Numbered from the stretch's first letter, positions 6,198 through 25,885 are shown. The stretch: DNA of 64,000 nucleotides from Nitrospirales bacterium (GCA_965212625.1 OZ243124.1:2007898-2071897); one strand, 5' to 3'. Numbers and translations: made by a program. The notes: generated from the letters alone by a model not told the origin.

Positions 6198-9194
6198 GTG
6201 ATACCGACAGACTGTAAGCGGCTGGCCGAAGTGGATTTTCCGATTGCGGTGGTGTCGAAGCACGCGGCACGGGAGAAGTCGATTCGGCATGGGCATCCGT
6301 CCACGCTGCATTTGTGGTGGGCGCGGCGGCCGTTGGCGTCGTGTCGGGCGGTGTTGTTGGCGTTGCTGTTGCCGGACCCGGGCGATTCGGCCTGTCCTGA
6401 GGACTTCAAGAGGCAGGCGCGTGAACTGCTGCCGAAGACGTCAGGGCCGGTGGGAGACGGCGACCGGGAGTTGCGGGCGAAGTTGTTGAAGTTTATCGGC
6501 GACTTTGCGAATTGGGACCACGCGGGGAAAGCCGCGTATCTGGAAGTTGGCCGCGGTCTGGTGCGGGCTGCTCACGGGGAGGAGGTGCCGTTGGTGGTGG
6601 ACCCCTTTGCCGGGGGCGGGTCGATTCCGCTGGAGGCGTTGCGGTTGGGGTGCGAGGCGTTTGCCAGTGACTTGAATCCGGTCGCCTGCCTGATTCTCAA
6701 GGTGATGCTGGAGGATATTCCCCGCCATGGGCCGGGGCTGGCTGAGGAGTTGCGCAAGGTCGGCGGGGAGATCAAGGCCGCGGCGGAAAGGGAGTTGGCC
6801 GACCTGTATCCCGCAGACCGGGATGGGGCGACGCCGATTGCCTATCTGTGGGCGCGCACGGTGCGGTGTGAGTCCCCGAACTGCGGGGCGGAGATTCCGC
6901 TGATGCGCTCGTTCTGGTTGTGCAAGAAGCCGACACGCAAGCGGGCGCTGCGTCCGAAGGTGGTGCGGCCCAAGGGGAAGCCGCCGTGCGTCGAGTTCGA
7001 GGTATTCGAGCCGGAGGGTGACGGGGAGGTGCGCACGGGCACGGTCACGCGGGCCAAGGCGTCCTGCTTGTGCTGCGGGATCGTCCTGCCGCCGGAGCGG
7101 GTGCGGGCGCAGTTGGCCGAGGAGCGCGGCGGCGCGGAAGTGATCTTCGACGGCAAGGGCAAGCGCATCGGCGGCGCGCGCATGACTGCGGTGGTGACGC
7201 TGAAGCCGGGTGAGACGGGCCGCCATTACCGGCTGCCCACGGATGCCGATTACGCGACGGTGCGCAAGGCGCAGAAGCGGCTTGCCGAAATTCTCGGCGA
7301 GTGGGAGCAGGGCGGGAAGCAGGGGCTGTGTCCGGTGCCGGATGAGCCGCTGCCGCCGATTGGTACGTTGGGCTTTCGCGTGCAGCGGTACGGGATGCTG
7401 CACTGGGGCGATCTGTTCTCGGCGCGGCAGAAGGTGGCGTTGGTATTGATGAACCGATGGATTGCTAAGGAATCTAGGAACAAGAATGTTTCACGCGCTT
7501 TAGCCTGCTTCATGGGGCGCTCTGCAGATAAATATGCCTCCTTGGTTGTTTGGAATAATATCGGTGAAAAAGTAGAACATGTGTTTGGCAGGCAAGCGTT
7601 ACCAATGGTTTGGGACTTCTGCGAAGCGAATCTCTTTTCCTTGGGGACTGGCGGATTTGACAGCAATCTGAATTGGATAAAGCAAGTCGTCGAAAAATCG
7701 ACAGGGTTTGAATTCACTGGTCAAATCCAACCCGCAGACGCCACCCAACACCCGCTTCCCGACCAAGCCGCCGGCGTTTGGTTTACCGACCCGCCCTACT
7801 ACGACGCGATTCCATATTCGGACCTTTCCGACTTCTTCCTTGTCTGGCTCAAGCGTGTCCTGCCCAATCACCCGTTGTTACGGGACTCCTTCGACCCAGC
7901 CAACCCGCTGTCACCCAAGGACCGCGAAGCGGTGCAGGACGAAACCAAGAAATGCGACGGTCGCGTCAAGGATCGAGCATTCTTCGAGGACACGATGGGT
8001 GGGGCCTTCGCCGAAGGTCGTCGTGTGTTGAGCGAGGACGGGGTTGGCTCCGTGGTCTTCGCTCACAAGACCACCGAAGGCTGGGAGGCGTTGCTCTCCG
8101 GTATGATCCACGGTGGCTGGACCATCACCGGGTCCTGGCCTATCGCTACCGAAATGGGTTCGCGCCTTCGCGCCCGTGACTCCGCCGCGCTTGCCACCAG
8201 TGTCCACCTCGTCTGCCGGCCCCGTCCCGTCAACGCGCCGGTCGGCGATTGGGCCGCTGTTCTGCGTGAGTTGCCGACCCGCGTGGGCGACTGGATGGAA
8301 CGGCTGCAAGGCGAAGGCGTGCGGGGTGCGGACTTGGTGTTCGCCTGCATCGGCCCGGCCCTGGAGATATTCAGCCGGTACCGCGCCGTCGAAACCGTGG
8401 AAGGCCGCGAGGTGGGTCTGTCCGAGTATTTGGAGAGGGTCTGGGAAGTCGTCGGCCGCACGGCTTTGGAACAGGTGCTCGGCACTGCCGAGGCAAAGGC
8501 ACGCAACGGTGCGGCCGGGGCCGTTGAAGAGGATGCCCGGCTCACGGCTTTGTTTCTCTGGACGTTGCAGGCTACCGACGGACAGCACGGCGTGAACGGC
8601 AGTTCCGGTGAGAACGGCGAAGCGGATTCCGGGGACGAGGACGACGACGAAGCCGCGCCGCAAGGCAAGACGAAGGGCTACAGCTTGGTGTTCGACGTGG
8701 TGCGCCGTTTCGCGCAGCCCCTGGGCATTGACCTTCCCAAGTGGGAAGGCCGGATCGTCGAAACGAAGAAGGGCATCGTGCGCTTGCTGGCCGTGGCCGA
8801 ACGCGCTACGCAACTGTTTGGCGAGGACGGAGCCGAGGCCGCTGCCGTCTGGATCGAACGCGACCCCGAGCAAAGCCTTCAGCAAGTGCTGTTCCCGGAA
8901 ACGGAGCACACCCACGCGCCCAACGCCCGCAAGCGCGGCCGGCGTGGGAAGGCGGTCATGGACCCCGACGCAGAGCTTGTGGGCGACCGGCAGGCCACAA
9001 CGTTGGACCGCGTCCACGCGGCCATGCTCTTTCAGGCCGGCGGCCGGACCCACGCCCTGCGCAATCTTCTCAAAGCCGAGCAGGACCGCGGCCCGGATTT
9101 CCTTCGTCTTGCCAATGCCCTGTCCGCCTTGTACCCTTCGCCCAGCGAGGAAAAACGCCTCCTTGACGCCATGCTCCTGGCCGTGCCCAAGTGA
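6198..9194 (+). CDS. DUF1156-family DNA amino-methyltransferase
   Basis: 998 aa. N-terminus CKRLAEVDFPIAVVSKHAAREKSIRHGHPSTLHLWWARRP is the DUF1156 signature as I recall it. SAM motif I VVDPFAGGGSIPLEA and catalytic motif IV FTDPPYYD. Confidence 0.75.
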   Translation: MIPTDCKRLAEVDFPIAVVSKHAAREKSIRHGHPSTLHLWWARRPLASCRAVLLALLLPDPGDSACPEDFKRQARELLPKTSGPVGDGDRELRAKLLKFIGDFANWDHAGKAAYLEVGRGLVRAAHGEEVPLVVDPFAGGGSIPLEALRLGCEAFASDLNPVACLILKVMLEDIPRHGPGLAEELRKVGGEIKAAAERELADLYPADRDGATPIAYLWARTVRCESPNCGAEIPLMRSFWLCKKPTRKRALRPKVVRPKGKPPCVEFEVFEPEGDGEVRTGTVTRAKASCLCCGIVLPPERVRAQLAEERGGAEVIFDGKGKRIGGARMTAVVTLKPGETGRHYRLPTDADYATVRKAQKRLAEILGEWEQGGKQGLCPVPDEPLPPIGTLGFRVQRYGMLHWGDLFSARQKVALVLMNRWIAKESRNKNVSRALACFMGRSADKYASLVVWNNIGEKVEHVFGRQALPMVWDFCEANLFSLGTGGFDSNLNWIKQVVEKSTGFEFTGQIQPADATQHPLPDQAAGVWFTDPPYYDAIPYSDLSDFFLVWLKRVLPNHPLLRDSFDPANPLSPKDREAVQDETKKCDGRVKDRAFFEDTMGGAFAEGRRVLSEDGVGSVVFAHKTTEGWEALLSGMIHGGWTITGSWPIATEMGSRLRARDSAALATSVHLVCRPRPVNAPVGDWAAVLRELPTRVGDWMERLQGEGVRGADLVFACIGPALEIFSRYRAVETVEGREVGLSEYLERVWEVVGRTALEQVLGTAEAKARNGAAGAVEEDARLTALFLWTLQATDGQHGVNGSSGENGEADSGDEDDDEAAPQGKTKGYSLVFDVVRRFAQPLGIDLPKWEGRIVETKKGIVRLLAVAERATQLFGEDGAEAAAVWIERDPEQSLQQVLFPETEHTHAPNARKRGRRGKAVMDPDAELVGDRQATTLDRVHAAMLFQAGGRTHALRNLLKAEQDRGPDFLRLANALSALYPSPSEEKRLLDAMLLAVPK

Positions 9195-9343: not shown

Positions 9344-9579
9344 GAATTCTCGAGAGCACGCACAACGTGGGCTGGGATTACGACGGAGAGGCAGACGTCC
9401 TGTACATCTCCGTTGATTCGCCGAAACCCGCAGTAGGCGTTGATATTGGAGAGGGTGTCGTTGTCCGATACGATGAGGTCCGCGGTGAAGTCGTCGGACT
9501 CTCAATCGTGGGAATCCGTGAGAAAATGCTGCGGGAGCTCTCATCCCCCCTGCGACATGAGCCGTGGGGCGTGGGGTGA
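9331..9579 (+). CDS. DUF2283-family protein (antitoxin-like)
   Basis: ATG 9331 follows AGGAG. GWDYDGEADVLYISVD...GEGVVVRYDE.GEVVGLSIVG matches the DUF2283 pattern. The last ~8 codons come from the adjacent tandem repeat. Confidence 0.6.
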   Translation: MEALRILESTHNVGWDYDGEADVLYISVDSPKPAVGVDIGEGVVVRYDEVRGEVVGLSIVGIREKMLRELSSPLRHEPWGVG

Positions 9580-9975
9580 TCCGTGGGGCGTGGGTGATGC
9601 GGGCTGGATTCCCGCTTTCGCGGGAATGACAGAAGCGGGGGCCTGCGGCGTGAGCCGTGGGTTGTGGGTGGTGCGGGCTGGATTCCCGCTTTCGCGGGAA
9701 TGACAGAAGCGGGGGCCTGCGGCGTGAGCCGTGGGTTGTGGGTGATGCGGGCTGGATTCCCGCTTGCGCAGGAATGACAGAAGCGGGGGCCTGCGGCGTG
9801 AGCCGTGGGTTGTGGGTGGTGCGGGCTGGATTCCCGCTTGCGCGGGAATGACAGAAGCGGGGGCCTGCGACATGAGCCGTGGGGCGTGGGTGATGCGGGC
9901 TGGATTCCCGCTTTCGCGGGAATGACAGAAACGGGGGGGCCTAGGACGTGAGCCGTGGGTCGCGAGTGGTGAGGG
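9556..9975. repeat. Tandem repeat, 74-bp unit x5 (plus partial ends), each carrying the palindrome ggattcccgc-ttt-cgcgggaatgac
   Basis: The motif gggctggattcccgc starts at 9601, 9675, 9749, 9823 and 9897, an exact 74-bp period. Confidence 0.9.
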
Positions 9976-15011: not shown

Positions 15012-17822
15012 ATGGCGCTTGAACCTTGGTACAAAGCTGTCACGCCTCGCCGGGAAGTGCGCGAAGGCCGGTCGTTCAGCCCGGATGAGTTCGCGATTGC
15101 GCTGGAACAGGTCGTCGCCGGGACCGCGCCGGAGGACTACCGGGACCCGGCGCAGTTTTTCGCCCGTACCTGCTTCACGCGCGCGCTCAAGGACCATACC
15201 GGCATGGTGCTCCGGCGCCTCTCCGGCCGAACGGAAAACACGTCGCCGGTTTTGACCCTGATAACCCAGTTCGGCGGCGGCAAGACGCATACGCTCACCT
15301 CGCTTTATCACCTCGCGCGAGCCGGCGCGAGTGCCTCTCAACTCCCGGGCGTGGGGGATCTTCTGAACGAGGCCGGGATCGCCGCCGCTCCCGCCGCTCG
15401 CGTCGGTATCTTCGTCGGCAACGCCTGGGACCCGCAAGACGGCAGGGAAACGCCGTGGATCGACGTCGCCCGGCAACTCGCCGGGGAGAAAGGCGTCAAG
15501 GAACTCGGACCCGCGGCCAGAACCACGCCTCCCGGCACCGAGGCGATTGCCCGCGTCTTCAAAGCGGCCAACGCGCCGGTCCTCCTTCTGTTCGATGAGG
15601 TCCTGAATTTTCTGAATCGGCATCGTGGATTGGCCGAACCGTTCCACGCTTTTCTCCAGAACCTGACGGTCGCCGCGACCGCCACGACGCACGGTGCGGC
15701 GGTCATCAGCCTGCCTCGCAGCCAAGTCGAGATGACCGACTGGGACGTGCAGTGGCAGGAGAAGATCACGAAGGTGGTCCGGCGCGTGGCCAAGGATTTG
15801 ATCGCCAACGACGAGGCGGAAATCAGCGACGTGATCCGGCGTCGGCTGTTCGAGAACGTCGGCCATGACCGCCACCGGAAGAAGGTCTCGAAGGCGTATG
15901 CGGACTGGTGCTTTGAGCGGCGAGCACAACTCCCGCCCGAATGGACGGCGGTGGACAGCGTCACAACGGAGAGCAAGGCCAGAGAATATTTGCGCAGCCG
16001 TTTCGAGGCGTGCTTCCCGTTCCACCCGTCAACGCTCTCCGTCTTTCAACGCAAGTGGCAGGCCCTGGCCCAATACCAACAAACCCGCGGCACGCTGGCC
16101 ATGCTGGCCCAATGGATATCGTGGGCCTTCAGGGAAGGGTTCACGATGGCCAGAACGGAGCCGCTCATCACGCTGGGGTCCGCACCGCTTGACGTGCCGG
16201 AATTCCTTAGCGTGGTGCTCGGTCAACTCGGTGAGTCCCGGCTGGTGGCCGCCATTGACGCCGACGTTTCCGGTGCGCAGGCGCACGCCCGCGCCTTGGA
16301 CGCGGATACCAAGGGTGCCTTGCGAAACATCCACCGGCGCGCCGGAACGACGATCCTTTTCGAGTCCTCCGGCGGCCAGATCGACAAAGTGGCCCACCTG
16401 CCGGAACTGCGCTTTGCGCTCGGTGAACCGGACGTCGATACCACGTCGATTGATCACGCCGCCTTCGCGCTTGAGGACAAAACGTACTTCATCCGGCGCA
16501 TCGGGTCGGACGGATTCAAGATCAGTCACCAGCCCACCATGAAGAAAGTTGTCAGCGACCGGCGCGCTTCTCTGGATGAAGAAACGGAGATACGTCCGGT
16601 CATGCGTTCAATGGTCCAAAGGGAATTCGACCGGGGCGCGACGCTCCCCATCGTGCCGTTTCCGGCCGACGGTTCATCGGTGCAGGATACGCCGAAGTTG
16701 ACGCTTGTCGTCGTTGCACCGGAGTCGGACTGGACCGGTCTGCCGCAGCACGGGCAGGCGGGCACCGGCAACGTCCGTGAGCAAATCCGGGAATGGACGA
16801 AACAGCGCGGCACGTCACCCAGGCTGTACCCTGCTTCGCTTGTCTGGTGCGTCAAGAAACCCGGACGCGACCTGCGGGATACAGTCGAATGGATGCTGGC
16901 CTGGAAGCGCGTGGCTAAGGAGATCACCGACGGTACCTTGGGTGGGGATTTCGACCGGACGGACCGCACCGAAATCCAATCCAAGGTGGCCGAGGCTGAG
17001 ATGGCCGTGAAGGACGCGATTTGGGGCAGTTACCGTTTCGTGGTCATGGCCGACGGCCTGCCCGCGCAGGCGGGCCACGAGTCGGACGGCCTGAAGAGCA
17101 TTGATCTGGGTGCGGGGCATTCGAGCGGAGTTGAAACGCTGTGTGCTCGCGTCGTGACGGCTCTGAAGTCCCAAGCGATCCTCAACGATTCCATCGGCGC
17201 CGGCTACGTCGAACGAAACTGGCCACCGGCCCTGATGGAGTCCGGGGCGTGGCCGCTGACGAGCCTCCGTCAGAGTTTTTTGAATGGGTCGCTCACGCGG
17301 CTGCTCGATCCGGATGCCACGCTTCGCGCCAAGATCGTCGAGTTCGTCAGTCGGGGCGACTTTGGCTTGGCCTCAGGCCGGCAGTCGGACGGCACTTACG
17401 AACGGACCTGGATCAACGAACCGGTCCCGATTGAAGAAGTCACCTTCGACCCCGGCGTGTTTTTGCTTCGCAAGGACAAAGCGTTGGCGCTGAAGGCCAT
17501 GCCGGAACCGCAACCAATCCCCGATCCTTCCCCGAAGCCAGAGTGTGGCCCGGCACCGTCACCGGGCCCCGAATCCACGTCGCAATCCGACGCGCCGGTG
17601 AGCGAAGCCCCCCGGACCATCCGCCTGCGCGGCGACGTTCCGCCGGAGATCTGGAACCGACTCGGCACCAAGTTGCTGCCGAAGTTACGCAGTGGAGCAC
17701 ACCTGACCATCGGCATTGAATTCTCAGTAACAGTCGAAGGCCGGATGGCCCAGGGACTCACGGACGAGTTGAAACAAATCCTCACCGACCTGGGTTTATC
17801 GGAAACGGTGAACGTTGAGTGA
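15012..17822 (+). CDS. DUF499-family ATPase
   Basis: 936 aa. N-terminus LEPWYKAVTPRREVREGRSFSPDEFAIALEQVV and P-loop QFGGGKTHTL match my recollection of DUF499. Confidence 0.7.
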   Translation: MALEPWYKAVTPRREVREGRSFSPDEFAIALEQVVAGTAPEDYRDPAQFFARTCFTRALKDHTGMVLRRLSGRTENTSPVLTLITQFGGGKTHTLTSLYHLARAGASASQLPGVGDLLNEAGIAAAPAARVGIFVGNAWDPQDGRETPWIDVARQLAGEKGVKELGPAARTTPPGTEAIARVFKAANAPVLLLFDEVLNFLNRHRGLAEPFHAFLQNLTVAATATTHGAAVISLPRSQVEMTDWDVQWQEKITKVVRRVAKDLIANDEAEISDVIRRRLFENVGHDRHRKKVSKAYADWCFERRAQLPPEWTAVDSVTTESKAREYLRSRFEACFPFHPSTLSVFQRKWQALAQYQQTRGTLAMLAQWISWAFREGFTMARTEPLITLGSAPLDVPEFLSVVLGQLGESRLVAAIDADVSGAQAHARALDADTKGALRNIHRRAGTTILFESSGGQIDKVAHLPELRFALGEPDVDTTSIDHAAFALEDKTYFIRRIGSDGFKISHQPTMKKVVSDRRASLDEETEIRPVMRSMVQREFDRGATLPIVPFPADGSSVQDTPKLTLVVVAPESDWTGLPQHGQAGTGNVREQIREWTKQRGTSPRLYPASLVWCVKKPGRDLRDTVEWMLAWKRVAKEITDGTLGGDFDRTDRTEIQSKVAEAEMAVKDAIWGSYRFVVMADGLPAQAGHESDGLKSIDLGAGHSSGVETLCARVVTALKSQAILNDSIGAGYVERNWPPALMESGAWPLTSLRQSFLNGSLTRLLDPDATLRAKIVEFVSRGDFGLASGRQSDGTYERTWINEPVPIEEVTFDPGVFLLRKDKALALKAMPEPQPIPDPSPKPECGPAPSPGPESTSQSDAPVSEAPRTIRLRGDVPPEIWNRLGTKLLPKLRSGAHLTIGIEFSVTVEGRMAQGLTDELKQILTDLGLSETVNVE

Positions 17823-17839
17823 ATCCAGCGTCCGTAGGC

Positions 17840-18893
17840 CTCCAATTCCCCTTCAAAACTGGTGCCAGCTTGGGTATCGATCCTCCAATTCCCCTTCAAA
17901 ATTGGTGACTACCGTGCCCAACTCCCTCCAATTTCCCTTCAAAACTGGTCTGCAACGGTGGGAGGAACCTCCAATTCCCCTTCAAAACTGATGACGACTA
18001 CAGCGGTGCGCCTCCAATTCCCCTTCAAAACTGGTGTGTCATGATCCGTCCTTCCTCCAATTCTCCTTCAAAACTGGTAAGGAACATCATGACCAAACCT
18101 CCAATTCCCCTTCAAAACTGGTTTGATACGCGCGCCACAGCCTCCAATTCCCCTTCAAAACTGGCCTGAAGACGTTTGTCCAGCCTCCAATTCCCCTTCA
18201 AAACTGGCATCATCACGATGTCCTTCCTCCAATTCCCCTTCAAAACTGGCTGCGCGGTCTTGGCGATGCCTCCAATTCCCCTTCAAAACTGGCCTGAGGC
18301 AGATGTATTTGCCTCCAATTCCCCTTCAAAACTGGTTCAACTTTCCTTTGGCGACCTCCAATTCCCCTTCAAAACTGGTTCACTCGCCAAATTATGGCCT
18401 CCAATTCCCCTTCAAAACTGGTTCCCAAGATAGTCGTTTTCCTCCAATTCCCCTTCAAAACTGGTTTCCAGCAACGGCAGGGTCCTCCAATTCCCCTTCA
18501 AAACTGGTAGCCAAAAAACAATTTCGCCTCCAATTCCCCTTCAAAACTGGTCGTGGTGCCGATCGCAACCTCCAATTCCCCTTCAAAACTGGTCCAGGAA
18601 CTCAACCTGAGCCTCCAATTCCCCTTCAAAACTGGTCTCAAAGAGACTGGAGGTCCTCCAATTCCCCTTCAAAACTGGTTGATCATCGTCTCTCCTTCCT
18701 CCAATTCCCCTTCAAAACTGGTGAGTCCATCCGCGCAGGACCTCCAATTCCCCTTCAAAACTGGTTATCGCAACGCGTGGCGGCCTCCAATTCCCCTTCA
18801 AAACTGGTTTGGTGATCTGAAAAATGCCTCCAATTCCCCTTCAAAACTGGTGCCGCCGTCCGCGTCGGCCCTCCAATTCCCCTTCAAAACTGG
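17840..18893 (-). CRISPR. CRISPR array: 25 repeats of 24 nt (+ strand CCTCCAATTCCCCTTCAAAACTGG), 24 spacers of 18-20 nt
   Basis: Repeat starts are spaced 42-44 bp. Repeats 7-25 are identical. Repeats 2, 3, 4 and 6 carry single substitutions, marking the old end at the left. AT-rich leader lies at the right end. The strand call is an inference from this polarity. Confidence 0.95.
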
Positions 18894-18953
18894 TCATATA
18901 TCAGTTAACCATGTATATTTCAACAAATTTTTGATTTTTTCAAAGAGTTATTT
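18894..18953 (-). promoter_or_regulatory. AT-rich CRISPR leader with a candidate minus-strand promoter
   Basis: About 75% AT against a GC-rich background. On the minus strand: TTGAAA (18918-18923), 17 nt, then TATATG (18895-18900), directly abutting the first repeat. Confidence 0.35.
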
Positions 18954-19982
18954 ATGCCTGAAATTAGTGAATTTCAACATCCAGATTCAATTTGGACATG
19001 GAAGTCAAATAAGCGTAGGAGAAAGACAACCTTGTGGCTGCCTTATGTCTCTCGGGTGGAGAGTGTCAAGAAGAGAGTCTGGCGGTTTACATATAACGGA
19101 GGCGAGGTCGACACCGATGTGGCACGGCTTGATTGCGTCATGTTTTATGGCGCGACGGGACAGATTCCCATTGCGCTCATTGACGATCTTGCCGCGCTCC
19201 GCGTGCCGCTGCTGGTCCACCGGCGCAACATCGGCCGCCCCGCCGTCTTTTTGCCGGCGCCCAGAGCCGATGCCGACGACATTCTGACGAAACAGATCGT
19301 CGCCCGCACGCATGGCCCGAAACGCGCCTACCTTGCGCGAACCCTGGTGCGCGAGCGGTTCCGAGGCGTGGCAGGCACCTTCTCTCTCCCCGATACGGCC
19401 TATCGGCGGCTTGCCCTGACGCGCACCCTCGGGCAGGTCCGCCTCTGGGAGGCCGAGCACTCACGCAAATACTGGAGGAAGTATTTCGCCAGCCTGGGCC
19501 ATCCGGACGTCACACGGCGGGAGAAAGGGCCGCTCCCCGCTGCGCTCGATGCCGGTTCCATGTTTCTGTCGGGGATTCTCCTCCGCTGGCTGTTGATCCA
19601 CCGGCTTTCACCCAGTCACGGCTTCCTCCATGAAGGGACCGATTACATGGGGCTTGTGTACGATCTCATGGAGCCGGCACGGTACATGATTGAAGAGGCA
19701 CTCGCCGTTGCGTGCAAGTCTCATCTCCCGGACGGCGATGCTGACTCGCTGACGAAATCGACTTTATCCGCAATAAAAAACAACTTGGAAAAGGTTGTCT
19801 ACGTTCCCGCGACCCGTCAGTCCGTCCGCCGCAAAAACCTGTTGCACGGAAACGTGCTGGCACTACGGGCCTATCTTGCCGGCGACATGCGTCGGTTCGT
19901 CATTCCCACCGCGGGGGAACGCAAAGGGGGGCGGCCGCCAAAAGTTTCGTACTGGCTGCCGGGTGATATTCCTTCGAGGTGA
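18954..19982 (+). CDS. cas1: CRISPR-associated integrase Cas1
   Basis: WEAEHSRKYW and GFLHEGTDYMGLVYDLMEPARY match conserved Cas1 Glu/His/Asp-Glu motifs. The start is uncertain: ATG 18954 lies in AT-rich sequence, and a TTG near 19032 is possible. Confidence 0.8.
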   Translation: MPEISEFQHPDSIWTWKSNKRRRKTTLWLPYVSRVESVKKRVWRFTYNGGEVDTDVARLDCVMFYGATGQIPIALIDDLAALRVPLLVHRRNIGRPAVFLPAPRADADDILTKQIVARTHGPKRAYLARTLVRERFRGVAGTFSLPDTAYRRLALTRTLGQVRLWEAEHSRKYWRKYFASLGHPDVTRREKGPLPAALDAGSMFLSGILLRWLLIHRLSPSHGFLHEGTDYMGLVYDLMEPARYMIEEALAVACKSHLPDGDADSLTKSTLSAIKNNLEKVVYVPATRQSVRRKNLLHGNVLALRAYLAGDMRRFVIPTAGERKGGRPPKVSYWLPGDIPSR

Positions 19983-19986
19983 AAGT

Positions 19987-20069
19987 GCCTCCCCTTTTTG
20001 AAGGGCACCCGGGGAGGCGGGGGCGCCTTCCAGGTTGAGGTATGGATGTTAATCCTTGTGCCTGGAAGG
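19987..20069. ncRNA. Candidate anti-repeat (scout/tracr-like) RNA or bidirectional terminator: two hairpins
   Basis: Hairpin 1: gcctcccc (19987-19994) pairs with ggggaggc (20011-20018). Its 16-nt loop contains ttttgaaggg (19996-20005), the reverse complement of repeat positions cccttcaaaa. Hairpin 2: ccttccagg (20026-20034) pairs with cctggaagg (20061-20069). Confidence 0.35.
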
Positions 20070-20092
20070 GAATGTGGGGACATGGTCGGTTA

Positions 20093-23000
20093 TTATCGCT
20101 GCTGGGTCAAGTCCCGCCGTGATTTTTCGGAGTCAATCCGTTCAAAAAAACGCCGTCCGATGTTGATCGATGCGTTTTCATCCGCGTGTCCCTCGAAACC
20201 GCAATCTAGATAGACGCATCTGAAACGGGACTGCGTGGTGTCGGAAGACATTTCGGATGCCGGAGGTTGGCGCATGTTTCGCTTAGCGATAGACTCGACG
20301 CGATGACGCGGTTCGGTCCCTTTTGAGATTGGGACGTTCAGCGGCGGTCTTTCCTTGCGGTGGCGGAAGTTCTTCAAAGCATTGGGCGGATAATCAGCTC
20401 GGTTGAGAAGCCGTATCGTCCCGTTTTTAAGGGCAACGTGGCCAGATTCTCCCACCTCGATCTTGTCCGGCATGTTCCGAAGCTCCTGAAGTGCGTTCCG
20501 GCCGCACCGGTGGCAGGTCTGGCTGGTGCCGGCGGGGTTTACCTTGATGCCGGGGAAGAGGCGAAGCGGCTTGGACGGGCCGGAATACTGATTTTCCGTC
20601 GTGTTCCAGTTCTGGACGTAGATGTAAGGGTGTTCCCAGGTATCTGCCGTGAACCAGTGTTGACGGCGAATGGTCTTGTGCGCGTCCACTTCCGAATACA
20701 CGTAACGCCGCAGGACCGACCCGTAGATCATCTCTAGCTGCCGGCCCCCCGATTCAAAATTGCCAACCGATCTTTCGAGTATGGGAAACCCACGGAACCG
20801 TTCGCACAGGGTCTCAATGCGGTTGCAGACGTCTCCCACGATGTTTTCCCGGAACTGCATCAGGGCGTTCGAGTAGGTCTGGCCGACCTTCTGGTTGGGT
20901 TGCCGCGAACCGCGGTGCCGGCGGACCGCGGCTTGCAATTTCCTGAAGGTGGGAATTGCGACGCTACCGACCTCGAACGGGTCTCGGCAGCCGCTTTCCA
21001 CGAACTTCTTCAGCGAGAAGATCGCGTATCCGATGCGCCGTTCGCCAAGGTCGATGGCAACGATGTTGTCGAAAAGCAGGGCGTCCTTGGTTTCGGGATA
21101 AGGCCGTTTGTCAACGACGGGAACGGCAAGCTCAGCCCGAATTTTCACCGGCTCCGCCGAAAGGCGCACATTCTCACCTTCCAGTTTCAAGGACTGCTTG
21201 AACACCCGGTCCAGGAGCAACGTGTAGTCGCCGAGTTTCACGTCCTTGTCCCTCACGGTCTCCGTCAAGGTGCGGTCCAGCCATGTCTTGAACGAAGGCG
21301 GTCCGACCAATCGAAAGGCCGGCCGTTTGAGAGGTCTCCACCGTTTGAGATCGGTCGCGTTCTTCTTCACGGGCAATCCGGCTAGCCGCGGCGCCGTACC
21401 AGAGCGGAGGTTGAGTTCGACGAACCAGTCGTGGGGCGCTTGGCGCAACAGTGCCCGCGAACCCGGCTCGGGAAAGTTCGCCTTGCTCAAGCCCTCCACT
21501 GTCTTCCGGGGTAGAACCGCGATGGTTTGATCACGCACGACCGCTGGGAGTGCCAAGCCTTTGGCAATCTCGCCCTTGGCTGAGGAATAGTCCGCGGGCG
21601 GCTGCCAAGGGCGGTCCTTCGGGACATAAAACAACTCTTCGTGGTCAAGGCGCAAAAACTTTGCGCGCACGATGAAACTGTCACGAAACGCACGAAACGA
21701 AAGTCCATTGATGTCGCTGTTGAAGAGATTAAACGCGCGCACGGCGACGTTACGGGGAACTGTTTCTGCGTCGAGTTGCGCCGCGAGCAAGGGCGGAATG
21801 TCGACGGCGGCGGTGGCCGGTCTTGCCAAGTGCCCGGGAACAGAGTCGGGCAGTCCGGCGAGCCGCGTCGTAAAGACGAACTCTTCAACCAACAACAGGT
21901 CCCGGAAATGCGCGTGATTCGCGTCTGGAACCGACCTAAGTTCCTTGCGGATTTCCGCTGCGCGCTGCTCCAACCAGGCGAGCCAGTCAATTGCCCGGGC
22001 GCGGTCCATATCGAGACCGTATGCTTGATGACGGGATGTACTGAAAGGGTGCCGATAGATGGCGCCGCTGCGGTTGTGGAAGTAACGATTGGCTTCCTTC
22101 TCATTCAGAAAAATCGGCGTCATTGCTTCCCGAACTCGCCTGGCTGCGCGGGACGACAGCCTGCGCGACATGGCAGCGATGCGGTGAAGCAGGCGTCGAA
22201 GGGCGTATTCGGCCGCAAGACTAGAATCTATCTTACGGTCGGAGAGCGCCTTTCGCTCGCGTTCTTCCAAAGCGGGAAACGGATCAAGAGCAGCACCGCC
22301 CACCCATTCGGTAAGCCGCCGGAAGTGCTCTCGACGCCCCTGCATGGCGCCATTCAGGCGGGTTTCCAGGCGTTGAATCTCGCCGCGCGCGTCGTCGGTT
22401 CCGCCGGATATCCTGTTCAGCTTCGGCAGCTTGGGGAGCTTTTTCAATTCCTTAGAGAATTCCCGCTTAAGCGATTCGAGGCGGTTTGCGCGAGCTTCGT
22501 CTTCGGCGGATTCTCTTTCCTGCTCAAGACGGTTGTCCAACATGGCGAATTGACCCCTCAGTTCGGTCAATTCACTTGCCACGGTGTCGATAGTTTCGAT
22601 CTCCTGCGGCCCTGGAATATCGCCACCTCTCAAGATGGCGAGCGCGGCGCCGGCTTCTTGGACTCGCTCGGGAACACGATCGGAGAGGGCGACCAGACCG
22701 GCCACGTCAGTGTGCTGCCCCGAAAACAGCGAGGCGTTTTCGGCGTCTGTCAGTCGTTCAGGGATCAAGATATCTGGCGGCTGAGAATACAGCGCGGTGA
22801 GTTGACAAATCCGTTTCCAGTAGTTCGAGACCCATGAGGCGATCTTGCCGCCGACCGAGCCGCGGAACTCGGCGTAGCCGTCCGTCTCGAAGATCGGGTT
22901 GACCGGAATCGCGTCTGCGAACACTTTGAGTTGCTCTACCCGTCGCAGTTCTGTGTGAGGGACGGCGAGGGCTTCAACGAGGTGCTCAATACTTGATTGA

Positions 23001-23893
23001 CGAAGGAAGCACAGACCCTTGCCGAACAACCAGGACAACCCGTTATTCTGGCTGGTGACGACCTCTCCATTCAAACGGCCGGCAAATTTGGACGATGTCG
23101 GATCGAGCCCGGGCATGTCCCGTTGCAGTCTGCCGGCGCAAACCGCCACCACCTGATGAAGCCAAATTGCTTCGTTGCCGTCCATGTCCACGAACGGCGA
23201 TTCGGGATCGTGGGCGAGTGTGCCGGACGGACCTCTTCTGCGGTTACATACAGGTGGAAGCGCGCCGATCTTTGGAAAAGAATCTCCAAGAGTTGCAAAA
23301 TACTCGTCTGCGCACGCCAACGCGCCCTCGACAGCGTCGGCGAGGTACTTCCATCCGGAGAATTTTGCGGTGACTTCTGAGGCTATTCCCTTAGCCAACG
23401 ATAATTCAGGCTGATCTTTCTCCGTCTCCTTCGGTGAACGGTTGTTCCAGTCTTGAAACAATCGTCGTGTAAGTTCGTCCGCCGACCACGGGCGCTCAAC
23501 CCCGCCTCTACTTTGTGGGGAAGTGGTAAGGACCTTTTCGATTGACCGGACTGTAACGGCAGGGTTCGTGATTTTGGCGTGTACGGTGAGCGCCGCGGCA
23601 AAGGCAGCTTCGGGGTAGTGCCTTCGATTCACGAACTGGCGTGTTTCCACTTCTTTGGAAAACAGCCGGAACCCGGATAGGTGAATCGCACAGACCAAGC
23701 CGATCAAGCTCCCCCGTGCAATCCCCTCGGTGACGTCGTATGTCCGAGCAGCCGTGTCGAAGTCTATATCGCCGTCCTGGACGTCCAGCTTGAACTTGTA
23801 CGTAAAGACGCTTTCCTTCTGTCGGCGCGCCAATGCGGCTACTTTACGCCGCCAGTCGCGGGCATTCTGACCACCGTAATATTCTCGTCTCAT
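20093..23893 (-). CDS. cas12: Type V CRISPR effector, Cas12c/Cas12d(CasY)-like
   Basis: RuvC-I is IVAIDLGERRIGYAIF. RuvC-II is FPILERSVGNFESGG. RuvC-III is GHADENASINIGRRF. Zn-ribbon cysteines: TSQTCHRCG ... CVYLDCG. ATG 23893 follows GGAG with an 8-nt spacer. The open frame extends to 23983 (1296 aa). Confidence 0.85.
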   Translation of the reverse strand: MRREYYGGQNARDWRRKVAALARRQKESVFTYKFKLDVQDGDIDFDTAARTYDVTEGIARGSLIGLVCAIHLSGFRLFSKEVETRQFVNRRHYPEAAFAAALTVHAKITNPAVTVRSIEKVLTTSPQSRGGVERPWSADELTRRLFQDWNNRSPKETEKDQPELSLAKGIASEVTAKFSGWKYLADAVEGALACADEYFATLGDSFPKIGALPPVCNRRRGPSGTLAHDPESPFVDMDGNEAIWLHQVVAVCAGRLQRDMPGLDPTSSKFAGRLNGEVVTSQNNGLSWLFGKGLCFLRQSSIEHLVEALAVPHTELRRVEQLKVFADAIPVNPIFETDGYAEFRGSVGGKIASWVSNYWKRICQLTALYSQPPDILIPERLTDAENASLFSGQHTDVAGLVALSDRVPERVQEAGAALAILRGGDIPGPQEIETIDTVASELTELRGQFAMLDNRLEQERESAEDEARANRLESLKREFSKELKKLPKLPKLNRISGGTDDARGEIQRLETRLNGAMQGRREHFRRLTEWVGGAALDPFPALEERERKALSDRKIDSSLAAEYALRRLLHRIAAMSRRLSSRAARRVREAMTPIFLNEKEANRYFHNRSGAIYRHPFSTSRHQAYGLDMDRARAIDWLAWLEQRAAEIRKELRSVPDANHAHFRDLLLVEEFVFTTRLAGLPDSVPGHLARPATAAVDIPPLLAAQLDAETVPRNVAVRAFNLFNSDINGLSFRAFRDSFIVRAKFLRLDHEELFYVPKDRPWQPPADYSSAKGEIAKGLALPAVVRDQTIAVLPRKTVEGLSKANFPEPGSRALLRQAPHDWFVELNLRSGTAPRLAGLPVKKNATDLKRWRPLKRPAFRLVGPPSFKTWLDRTLTETVRDKDVKLGDYTLLLDRVFKQSLKLEGENVRLSAEPVKIRAELAVPVVDKRPYPETKDALLFDNIVAIDLGERRIGYAIFSLKKFVESGCRDPFEVGSVAIPTFRKLQAAVRRHRGSRQPNQKVGQTYSNALMQFRENIVGDVCNRIETLCERFRGFPILERSVGNFESGGRQLEMIYGSVLRRYVYSEVDAHKTIRRQHWFTADTWEHPYIYVQNWNTTENQYSGPSKPLRLFPGIKVNPAGTSQTCHRCGRNALQELRNMPDKIEVGESGHVALKNGTIRLLNRADYPPNALKNFRHRKERPPLNVPISKGTEPRHRVESIAKRNMRQPPASEMSSDTTQSRFRCVYLDCGFEGHADENASINIGRRFFERIDSEKSRRDLTQQR

Positions 23894-24358
23894 GAAGTGA
23901 ACTCCATATTTGGGCAATTTCACAATCCCGGTTGGTGAATTCCTTCCCCTGATGCCAAGCCAACCACCTTGGCCGATATCCATTAAGACTATGTAGCGAC
24001 ATGCCCGGTACTGTCAACGCCTAGCTTGGCTAGGGACCAAGCCTCCAGGTTGCCTCCTTCGCTGCAAGGAAAAACTGATTTCAACTCCCGAGGAAAACTT
24101 GAACCTCACGCCTACCCGCCCGCGCCGTTTGTGTGTTTGACTCTCCGATTACGCTATGCGAAAAGGCACTTCAGCGAAAGTGGAAGGGTGCGGTTCATTA
24201 TGAACTGTTCGAGACAGTGCCGGCTTAGATGGTGATCGTTTCAAGGTCCCGACCGCGTGTGTCGCCGAGGTTTCCGGTCTTGACCAGCGGCCACCCCTTC
24301 CTTGTTTGATCGCTGGGTTCCTTTGCGTCTATCAGCCACGCTTTTCCACTCGTCAAGA

Positions 24359-25885
24359 ATGAACCGTTCGCTCATGGACCGTTCTTGGATACTGGTCGTC
24401 TTCGTCGGGTATTGTGCGACGCTGATCGGCATTGCCGTCTTTCGCGGCCGGCGGATGCGGGTGATGTCCGATTACGTGCTTGGGGGGCGGCGGATGAGCA
24501 GTTTCACGTCGGCGCTCAGTGCCAGTTCGTCCGGCACCAGCGGTTGGGCGATTCTGGTGTTTCCGGCGTTGGCCTTCCAGCATGGGTTGGTGGAGGCGTG
24601 GACGGCTCTGGCGTTGGTGGCGGGCATCTGGTCCGGTTGGACGGTGCTCGCGAAACGGCTGCGTCGCTACACCATTGCCGCGGAGGATTCCCTCACCCTG
24701 CCGGAGTTCCTGGAAAAGCGGTTCGGGGACGCCACCGGGACCGTGCGCACGGTGGCGGCGCTCATCACCCTCTTTTTCATCGTCTTCTACCTCAGTTCCG
24801 GCTTGATCGCGGGTTCCAAGTTGTTGGGGACGGTGTTCGGACTGGATGAGATGCTGGGGGTGGTGGTGACGCTCGCGGCCGTGGGGTCCTACACGTTCAT
24901 CGGCGGCTTCCTGGCGGTGTCCAGGACCGACGTGTTTCAGGCGGCGCTGATGCTGGCGGCGTTCGTCATCCTGCCGTTGTGGTTAATCGTCGTGACGGAC
25001 AACCCGTTCGAGGGCCTGGGTGAGACGACGCCCGGCTTCTGGAATCCCTTCACTGACCGGAAGGGCGATCCTCTCAACGCGATCTTTTTGCTCTCGACGG
25101 TAGGATGGGGATTGGGCTACTTGGGCTCGCAGCGCGTGGTGCAGCGTTTCATGGCGGTGGGAAGCGAGGCCAGGATTCCGCAAAGCCGCGCCATCGGCAC
25201 GGCGTGGATGTTCCTCGTCTATCTGTTTGCGCTGTTGCTGGGGCTGGTTGCCCTGCCGGCGCTGTCGGAGGCAGGCCGGCTGGACGAGGTGACGGCCGAC
25301 CCCGAGCGCGTCTATCTTGTGGCGACGCAGGTGTTCTTCCACCCGATCGTGGGCGGGCTGTTGCTGTCCGCGGTGATTGCCGCGGTGATGAGCACGGCGG
25401 ATTCGCAACTGTTGTTGGCGTCGGTGGTCACCACCAATGATCTGCCTTTCGTCAAACGGTACACCGCTGCGCTGGGGGCCGGTGCCCGGGTCCGGTTGGC
25501 CCGGGTTCTGCTCGTGGTGACGGGCGTCGTGGCCGCGGCGTTCTCGATTGTCAACCCGGAATCGGTGTTCGTCCTGGTGTCGTACGCCTGGGGCGGCATG
25601 GGGGCGGCGTTTGCCCCGGTCACGATCATGGCGCTGTACTGGCGCCGGTTCAACGTTCAGGGTGCGGTTGCGGCCATGGTGACCGGTACGGCTGCGGCGT
25701 CAATCTGGGGATACGCTTCGGGCGGTCCCGCCGGGATCATGGACCTGCAACCCGCCACTCCCGGCTGCCTGACGGCGGTGCTGGCGGCCGCCGTCGTGAC
25801 CGTGCTGACGCCTAGGCCGTCCACGGCGGCGGTGGCCCTGTTCGACAAGGTGAACGCTCCCGCCGCAAGACCGGCCAGGCCCTGA
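24359..25885 (+). CDS. putP: Sodium:solute (proline) symporter, SSF family
   Basis: About 508 aa, polytopic membrane protein. GGRRMSSFTSALSASSSGTSGW and further SSF-like segments. The ORF opens at 24302, but ATG 24359 is more plausible. Confidence 0.7.
   Translation: MNRSLMDRSWILVVFVGYCATLIGIAVFRGRRMRVMSDYVLGGRRMSSFTSALSASSSGTSGWAILVFPALAFQHGLVEAWTALALVAGIWSGWTVLAKRLRRYTIAAEDSLTLPEFLEKRFGDATGTVRTVAALITLFFIVFYLSSGLIAGSKLLGTVFGLDEMLGVVVTLAAVGSYTFIGGFLAVSRTDVFQAALMLAAFVILPLWLIVVTDNPFEGLGETTPGFWNPFTDRKGDPLNAIFLLSTVGWGLGYLGSQRVVQRFMAVGSEARIPQSRAIGTAWMFLVYLFALLLGLVALPALSEAGRLDEVTADPERVYLVATQVFFHPIVGGLLLSAVIAAVMSTADSQLLLASVVTTNDLPFVKRYTAALGAGARVRLARVLLVVTGVVAAAFSIVNPESVFVLVSYAWGGMGAAFAPVTIMALYWRRFNVQGAVAAMVTGTAAASIWGYASGGPAGIMDLQPATPGCLTAVLAAAVVTVLTPRPSTAAVALFDKVNAPAARPARP

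Follow-up and report, generated by a model that had tools for sequence, protein, structure and literature searches.

Among the type V effectors of CRISPR systems, Cas12d (CasY), a sister of Cas12c with 17–19-nucleotide (nt) spacers, is said to require a trans RNA of short complementarity, named scoutRNA. Type V-C (Cas12c) systems are likewise known to depend on a helper RNA, the trans-activating CRISPR RNA (tracrRNA), which is described as a 4-nt 5' anti-repeat, a stem 1 enclosing stem 2 and a 4-nt single-stranded dock, a stem 3, and a second anti-repeat of 7–8 nt (PMC9522604; PMC9723637). The tracrRNA of Cas12c2 (Yan et al. 2019) is known from a cryo-electron microscopy structure (Kurihara et al. 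2022, PMC9522604). In the structure of Cas12c1, determined by crystallography (Zhang et al. 2022, PMC9723637), the repeat:anti-repeat duplexes cover repeat positions -18 to -11, -10 to -7, and -4 to -1, with -6 and -5 unpaired. Cas12c1 cleaves its target, while Cas12c2 and Cas12c_4 bind only (bioRxiv 2021.12.06.471469; PMC9522604; PMC9723637). A short-spacer format, a cas1-only adaptation module, and 25-nt repeats are typical of type V-C (bioRxiv 2021.12.06.471469; PMC9522604).

The present analysis concerns a stretch of 64,000 nt from a Nitrospirales bacterium (GCA_965212625.1 OZ243124.1:2007898-2071897), which is referred to below as the window and which, judged by its sequence, contains a type V-C CRISPR-Cas12c locus. 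A first-pass annotation of this DNA had proposed a scoutRNA/tracrRNA candidate in the intergenic region between cas1 and the cas12 gene, with bidirectional terminators as the alternative explanation. The results described here support the candidate: with a probability of about 0.9, window positions 19980–20075 on the minus strand are the tracrRNA (scoutRNA) gene of the locus. The element is a new tracrRNA/scoutRNA of the already known type V-C class, and no new kind of system is involved.

Co-variation of the anti-repeats with the CRISPR repeat

The genes cas1 and cas12c are convergent, with the TGA stop codon of cas1 ending at 19982 and the TAA stop codon of cas12c at 20093–20095 on the minus strand, and the non-coding DNA between them amounts to 110 nt. 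The two hairpins that had been reported in this sole non-coding segment are present as described. On the plus strand, the 8-bp stem is formed by gcctcccc (19987–19994) and ggggaggc (20011–20018) around a 16-nt loop (19995–20010), and the loop 10-mer ttttgaaggg (TTTTGAAGGG, 19996–20005) is the exact reverse complement of cccttcaaaa in the repeat. Within the whole window, this 10-mer was found only in 24 of the 25 repeats and at the tracrRNA site, against 0.15 occurrences expected per window. The 9-bp hairpin (ccttccagg at 20026–20034 and cctggaagg at 20061–20069) also exists; it is, however, not the separate element it had been taken for, being stem 1 of the same RNA and enclosing stem 2 and the dock CCUC.

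Read on the minus strand, the RNA has three segments complementary to the repeat, forming duplexes of 10, 4, and 4 nt at repeat positions -20 to -11, -10 to -7, and -4 to -1, with -6 and -5 unpaired; the last 20 nt of the repeat are thus contacted in three pieces. Co-variation of these segments with the repeat was examined in a close set of three genomic loci (Nitrospirales and Binatia metagenome-assembled genomes) and 14 metagenomic loci, whose Cas12c proteins are 38–90% identical to that of the window. A metagenome scan added 40 further, more distant loci, and about ten distant loci were used in the comparison. The genome scan gave only the three close loci, two of them with a frameshifted cas12c, and most of the comparative power came from metagenome contigs.

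The 3' anti-repeat and its target changed together repeatedly. The window pairs CCCUUCAAAA in the tracrRNA with UUUUGAAGGG in the repeat, and the corresponding combinations are CCCUACA and UGUAGGG in L003, L007, and L009, CAUUCAAA and UUUGAAUG in L016, CUUCUCAAAA and UUUUGAGAAG in L017, CCUCUCA and UGAGAGG in L018 and L020, CACCAAA and UUUGGUG in L031, and ACCACA and UGUGGU in L035. For the 5' anti-repeat, AUUC faces GAAU in the window, ACUC faces GAGU in L014 and L016, GUAC faces GUAU in L017, and AUAU faces AUAU in L018. The dock behaves likewise, with CCUC against GAGG in the window, CCUU against AAGG in L018 and L020, and CCCU against AGGG in L031. When repeats were swapped between loci, 150 of 194 comparisons showed a tracrRNA pairing better with its own repeat than with the foreign one. 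The three segments are genuine anti-repeats: co-variation with the repeat is the decisive test, and it was found in all three. The comparison of loci alone recovers the three-duplex guide architecture of Cas12c that had earlier been established through structures.

The body of the RNA was supported in the same way. A covariance model (R1) built from 16 distinct sequences gave exactly one strong match per locus, with 72–116 bits in 16 loci, always in cas12c sense and in the same place; the match in the window spans 19979..20077 on the minus strand (115 bits, E=6e-24), and the model search of the 64-kb window found no second tracrRNA copy. In an unbiased MAFFT alignment, 100% of the cells of stem 1 and 98.8% of those of stem 3 were paired, and six pairs of the two stems were changed on both sides. 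None of 500 shuffles reached the observed values, the slid controls were 33–55% paired, and RNAalifold on its own predicted identical stems 1 and 3. Covariation of tracrRNA stems 1 and 3 was thereby shown. An Rfam search of window positions 17000–25000 at E up to 10 returned nothing relevant, Rfam being without a V-C tracrRNA family.

Predicted tracrRNA gene and its comparison with Cas12c2 and Cas12c1

The conserved features, the promoter, and the orientation of the CRISPR RNAs (crRNAs) all lie on the minus strand, which is therefore taken as the RNA strand. The first-pass annotation had noted that same-strand transcripts could pair whichever strand was used; the strand is now settled as minus, the sense of cas12c and of the crRNAs. 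The plus strand was considered as the RNA strand and rejected, with a fold z-score of only -1.26 against -2.24 for the minus strand.

The transcript is predicted to run from about 20075 to about 19980 (about 96 nt), and the tracrRNA begins about 20 nt past the cas12c stop codon in the same sense. It probably has a sigma-70-type promoter of its own, TTGACC-N17-GACCAT, overlapping the end of cas12c: the predicted -35 box TTGACC (20110–20105, minus strand, as are all positions given in descending order) lies within the last cas12c codons and is followed, after a 17-nt spacer, by the predicted -10 box GACCAT (20087–20082). Eight nucleotides (GUCCCC and then AC, 20081–20074) separate the -10 box from the 5' anti-repeat, with the start predicted near 20075. 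The -35 sequence TTGAC(C/A) is kept in nearly all loci, with the variants TTGATA in L016 and CTTGCG in L015, and its conservation extends to loci in which it falls behind the cas12c stop codon (L006 and L011) or overlaps that codon (L017). In the -10 box, position 6 (T) is invariant and position 2 (A) nearly so. An independent transcript from near 20075 is predicted because the TTGAC-type -35 box is conserved even outside cas12c and the geometry resembles that of Cas12c2.

The RNA opens with the 5' anti-repeat AUUC (20073–20070), which pairs with GAAU of the repeat (-10 to -7). It is followed by the 5' strand of stem 1, CCUUCCAGG (20069–20061), whose 3' strand, CCUGGAAGG (20034–20026), was assigned by the pairing count and RNAalifold; this 9-bp helix is paired throughout in 16 loci, with two compensatory pairs. 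Enclosed by it are the stem 2 hairpin GGAU-UAAC-AUCC (20055–20044), in which only the GGA/UCC base is the same in all loci, loop and length being variable (with a C(UUCG)G tetraloop in L017), and the dock CCUC (20040–20037), flanked by AUA and AA, which pairs with the last four repeat bases GAGG (-4 to -1). Stem 3 comprises CGCCC (20025–20021) and, by the pairing count, GGGUG (20010–20006), with four of its five pairs compensatory and an independent RNAalifold prediction. Inside its loop are the linker CC (20020–20019) and the 5' arm of the 3' hairpin, GCCUCCCC (20018–20011), the latter belonging to the 8-bp hairpin of the first-pass annotation. The 3' anti-repeat CCCUUCAAAA (20005–19996), pairing with UUUUGAAGGG of the repeat (-20 to -11), comes next, and after the linker A (19995) the RNA continues into the 3' arm of the hairpin, GGGGAGGC (19994–19987), complementary to the 5' arm, and into the tail ACUUUCAC (19986–19979), which overlaps the cas1 stop codon on the opposite strand.

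The order of elements in the Cas12c2 tracrRNA is the same as in that of the window, namely 5' anti-repeat, stem 1, stem 2, dock, stem 1', stem 3, and 3' anti-repeat, and so is the position between cas12c and cas1. The dock is identical (RUA-CCUC-AA, pairing GAGG), the core GGAU..AUCC-RUA-CCUC-AA is common to the window and the Cas12c2 single-guide RNA (sgRNA; Table S1, PMC9522604), and stem 2 of Cas12c2 (GGAUC-AUA-GAUCC) is similar. However, the two proteins are only distantly related (E=1e-147), and the RNAs differ in several respects: the 3' anti-repeat has 10 nt in the window and 7 nt in Cas12c2, the 5' anti-repeat pairs at -10 to -7 in the window and at -11 to -8 in Cas12c2, and stem 1 has 9 bp with a 2-nt AA spacer in the former and 10 bp in the latter. 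A strong 3' hairpin of 8 bp without a separate terminator in the window contrasts with no more than 4 bp (GCAG/CUGC) plus a canonical terminator in Cas12c2.

The protein of L030, one of the distant loci, matches Cas12c2 of PDB entry 7v93 over its full length (2783 bits), which makes this locus the native one of Cas12c2 or nearly identical to it. In L030, the published Cas12c2 tracrRNA maps to positions 7654–7724, in the spacer between cas12c and the convergent cas1 and in cas12c sense, and its promoter, TTGCAC-N16-TATAAT, has a -10 box ending 6 nt before the published tracrRNA 5' end, the same geometry as in the window. A canonical terminator, CCGGCGAAAGCCGGUUUUUU, was observed at L030 positions 7738–7757 (region 7620–7757). 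The native Cas12c2 transcript is probably about 30 nt longer at its 3' end than the 71-nt version used for the structure.

The tracrRNA of Cas12c1 was compared by architecture rather than by sequence alignment. Its pairing register is like that of the window, where the 3' duplex covers -20 to -11, and stems 1–3 are arranged alike; it is a 92-nt RNA with longer stems 2 and 3, and the proteins are distant (E=3e-125). Compared with the scoutRNA of Cas12d as far as its description was accessible, the effector of the window is Cas12c, and the complementarity is 18 nt in three segments instead of 3–5 nt. For this reason the term tracrRNA is to be preferred, in agreement with Kurihara et al. The type II (Cas9) tracrRNA is likewise a trans-encoded small RNA with an anti-repeat, located beside the effector gene and needed for guide formation; however, it forms one long continuous duplex cut by RNase III, whereas in the window three short discontinuous duplexes and, by analogy, processing by the RuvC site of the effector would be involved.

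The following course of events is proposed. The RNA would be transcribed from a sigma-70-type promoter of its own, beginning about 2 nt ahead of AUUC, and transcription would end at or just after the GC-rich 3' hairpin, beside the cas1 stop codon. As the covariation shows, the transcript folds into stem 1 (9 bp) around stem 2 and the single-stranded dock, and then into stem 3 (5 bp); the 8-bp hairpin GCCUCCCC/GGGGAGGC would leave the 10-nt anti-repeat accessible in a loop of 16 nt, where the repeat would first be contacted. By their complementarity and co-variation with the repeat, the three single-stranded segments of the RNA pair with the 3' part of each repeat of the precursor crRNA (pre-crRNA), CCCUUCAAAA with -20 to -11, AUUC with -10 to -7, and CCUC with -4 to -1. 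If the published work on Cas12c1, Cas12c2, and Cas12c_4 applies to this orthologue, Cas12c would bind the tracrRNA:repeat scaffold, its RuvC site would cut the pre-crRNA about 17–18 nt downstream of the bound repeat, in the spacer region, and the mature dual RNA would guide DNA binding, and in some orthologues cutting, beside a TN/TG protospacer adjacent motif. When the tracrRNA and crRNA were folded together with RNAcofold, the resulting structure depended on the spacer.

The 3' hairpin and alternative explanations

Several observations weigh against the tracrRNA assignment or against parts of it. The global alignment score to the Cas12c2 tracrRNA was reached by 20 of 1000 shuffles and is marginal; homology to that RNA therefore rests on the architecture, the shared core, and the position. 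The -10 box is weak, with three of six bases matching, and was hence missed by a simple promoter and terminator scan, which did not call the tracrRNA promoter and called neither hairpin; both tracrRNA ends, 5' and 3', are predictions only. The 10-mer match taken alone is weak and only suggestive: over the 500 non-coding nucleotides of the locus, 139 of 5000 dinucleotide shuffles (2.8%) contained an exact match of at least 10 nt to either repeat strand, with 1.4% calculated analytically, so that the roughly 1% estimated beforehand was of the right order and slightly optimistic. As an intrinsic terminator, the 8-bp hairpin is imperfect, having a GC-rich stem but a 16-nt loop and a tail, ACUUUCAC, with three U, and the scan called it on neither strand. 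A stretch of the stem 3 loop is complementary, over 5–8 bp, to the stretch directly after the 3' anti-repeat in 18 of 18 loci, but the arm ends were chosen by complementarity, which raises the apparent share of paired bases but leaves the diversity of pair types unaffected, and makes this evidence weaker than the counts for stems 1 and 3. Finally, the role of the 3' arm is unproven, and by analogy the arm would not be essential for the effector complex, because published Cas12c1 and Cas12c2 sgRNAs without it still work (PMC9522604; PMC9723637).

The arms of this hairpin were counted by a script, since both the MAFFT and the covariance-model alignments failed to align the divergent arms. About 11 distinct arm sequences were found, including GCCGCCCC/GGGGCGGC, GGCUGCC/GGCAGCC, AUGCCCCU/AGGGGCAU, GCCCCCA/UGGGGGC, GGGCGC/GCGCCC, and UCCCG/CGGGA. 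The geometry is constant, with 1–2 nt before the 5' arm, 0–1 nt between this arm and the 3' strand of stem 3, and 10–12 nt (the anti-repeat) before the 3' arm. Short U-runs (AUUUUU, AUUUUC, and AUUUCC) follow the hairpin on the cas12c-sense strand in several loci. The arms pair over a shorter length in loci that have a separate canonical terminator, namely L002 (5 bp), L030 (4 bp), and L035 (3 bp). Weak terminator activity of the 8-bp hairpin is plausible, given that relatives carry AUUUUU or AUUUUC tails. The hairpin is a conserved part of the same RNA and most likely, to judge from these comparisons, acts as a transcription terminator and a hairpin protecting the 3' end.

The convergent arrangement itself raises the question of whether both hairpins merely terminate transcription of cas1 and cas12c, with the 10-nt repeat match arising by chance. 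Their GC-rich stems are indeed located precisely between the stop codons of two convergent genes, short U-runs such as AUUUUU and AUUUUC occur in relatives after the 3' hairpin on the cas12c-sense strand, and a chance of 1.4–2.8% for the 10-mer is not negligible. However, this explanation is already contradicted by the co-variation of the 10-nt match and two further segments with the repeat in several lineages, and we regard it as very improbable. The 26 nt inside the 9-bp hairpin include conserved single-stranded motifs, and this hairpin lacks a U-tract; on the plus strand, neither hairpin is followed by one, the terminator scan calls neither, and the experimentally validated Cas12c2 tracrRNA is a positional and structural homologue. 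What stands of the terminator alternative is that the 8-bp hairpin may terminate transcription, which is compatible with a tracrRNA; since the plus strand shows no U-tract behind it, the hairpin is not a bidirectional one. It is hardly more credible that the element is a decayed, inverted stand-alone repeat, giving a 'cr-like' or regulatory RNA that, if active, would autoregulate the cas genes and have no part in crRNA maturation. Repeat-like regulatory elements are widespread (bioRxiv 2023.03.03.530964), and the minus-strand CCUCC..CCCUUCAAAA resembles the plus-strand text of the repeat, CCTCCAATTCCCCTTCAAAA; but the likeness is to the crRNA antisense, that is, to an anti-repeat and not to a guide-like repeat, and the CCUCC in the hairpin arm covaries with its partner arm rather than with the end of the repeat, where GAGG is retained. 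There was no sign of a spacer-like partial match, though no search was aimed at one, and the full tracrRNA architecture is present. The same CCUCC of the 5' arm was also considered as a second dock for GGAGG and rejected, as the arm covaries with its partner (GGCUGCC/GGCAGCC and AUGCCCCU/AGGGGCAU) while the end of the repeat remains GAGG.

A different question concerns the 3' domain within the tracrRNA reading. As drawn from the sequence, the 8-bp hairpin and stem 3 cross, which would give an H-type pseudoknot topology with the anti-repeat as loop 3. Such a knot, with stem 3 as its first and the 3' hairpin as its second stem, could be stable and a working part of the tracrRNA, one that controls access to the anti-repeat, presents it, or shields it, or that remains in place within the Cas12c complex, and would then be more than a terminator destined for trimming or melting. 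In its favor, both helices covary and cross, the linker geometry is constant across the distant lineages L018, L020, L027, L031, and L032, and several loci (L014 and L016) have a weak U-tract behind the hairpin or none at all. On the other hand, processing and DNA binding by Cas12c1 and Cas12c2 proceed with sgRNAs that have no 3' arm (PMC9522604; PMC9723637), the pairing shrinks to 5, 4, and 3 bp beside a canonical terminator in L002, L030, and L035, respectively, as would be expected of a hairpin that mainly terminates transcription, and a 10-bp anti-repeat:repeat helix within loop 3 may clash sterically with the knot. A functional knot is a tentative idea, less likely than the role of terminator and protecting hairpin. 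Similarly tentative is its extension to much of the Cas12c family, according to which native tracrRNAs would have a conserved 3' arm that is omitted from published sgRNA designs and structures, the 3' domain being an H-type pseudoknot that serves as gate or presenter of the anti-repeat and as protector of the 3' end. Pairing between the stem 3 loop and the 3' arm was not found in the accessible Cas12c literature, which did not include Harrington 2020 and Yan 2019, and it may already be known. Should this pairing have a function, the truncated tracrRNAs employed in structural studies and in tools are unlike the native ones; if the pseudoknot is real, tracrRNA stability, assembly kinetics, and guide design for Cas12c tools would be affected.

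Locus layout, related loci, and neighboring features

The effector gene, cas12c (20093..23983, minus strand), was recognized by the Cas12c model NF033950 of NCBIfam along the entire length of the model (1043.8 bits), and the NCBIfam Cas12d model matches the same protein weakly (4e-27); the PDB matches are Cas12c2 (7v93, E=1e-147) and Cas12c1 (7vyx, E=3e-125). The open reading frame (ORF) read from the first ATG has 1296 amino acids (aa). As homologues have about 1260–1275 aa, the true start is possibly about 30 codons further in, and the family model alignment begins only at residue 41 of this ORF; a start about 25–35 codons downstream of 23983 is probable. The convergent cas1 (342 aa; 18954..19982, plus strand) has a Pfam Cas_Cas1 match (2.4e-10), and its synteny is unchanged in all related loci.

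The CRISPR array (17839..18894, minus strand) consists of 25 repeats of 24–25 nt with spacers of 18–20 nt, the crRNA-sense repeat being (A)CCAGUUUUGAAGGGGAAUUGGAGG. The repeat ends in GAGG, as does the crRNA of the Cas12c2 structure (..UUCAGGUUGGGUUUGAGG; Table S1, PMC9522604). Units 2, 3, 4, and 6 carry the mutated repeats and lie at the low-coordinate end, which is therefore taken as the trailer, and in related loci the degenerate terminal repeats are likewise at the end distant from cas1. The array is read on the minus strand, in cas12c sense, since the degenerate repeats lie far from cas1 and a conserved leader lies beside the cleanest repeats. This AT-rich leader (18895..18953, minus strand) is shared with the divergent start of cas1; a motif, TTG(A/T)AATATA.., beside the first repeat is kept in 15 loci, which suggests a promoter function of the leader. 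The first-pass statement that the repeat has no convincing internal hairpin is roughly right, RNAfold giving a weak, G-U-rich hairpin (CCAGUUUU/GGAAUUGG, -6.6 kcal/mol) in the crRNA-sense repeat; this weak hairpin would compete with tracrRNA pairing. Effector, cas1, array orientation, leader, and tracrRNA are thereby all placed in this new Cas12c locus of a Nitrospirales/Binatia-like lineage, and the complete annotation suffices for the design of an sgRNA for the Cas12c orthologue of the window.

The layout of the close loci is constant, with cas12c, a gap of 106–145 nt, the convergent cas1, and the array beside the cas1 start. There are three kinds of exception: L002 lacks an array, the cas12c ORF of L007 and L008 continues into the tracrRNA, and cas1 of L009 is a 98-aa remnant. 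Several relatives show signs of decay. In L007 (position 8849) and L008 (position 5638), the cas12c stop codon lies in the stem 2 loop and cas1 is cut to 231 aa; L009 (8927–9223) has kept the array and the tracrRNA with cas1 reduced to the 98-aa remnant; and cas12c is split by frameshifts in L002, where the array is absent, and L003, which may be long-read assembly errors. Among the distant loci, the array of L019, L020, L023, L029, L031, and L035/L038 lies upstream of cas12c rather than beyond cas1, and in L020 and L031 the tracrRNA is upstream of the array and not downstream of cas12c. Because the placement of array and tracrRNA varies in distant lineages, the gene order of type V-C is not fixed.

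Additionally, the array is adjoined at its trailer end by an ORF of 936 aa (window positions 15012–17822, plus strand) with the anti-phage-associated DUF499 (NCBIfam NF042962 below its cutoff; Pfam DUF499, 3e-12). A DUF499 neighbor is also found in L001 and L004, the latter having in addition an AAA_15/SMC_N ATPase gene, and its association with the Cas12c locus suggests a shared defence island. Further away, at window positions 9576–9962, a tandem repeat with a 74-nt unit was observed (5.2 copies, 92% matches), the unit including the GC-rich palindrome GGATTCCCGCTTTCGCGGGAATG.

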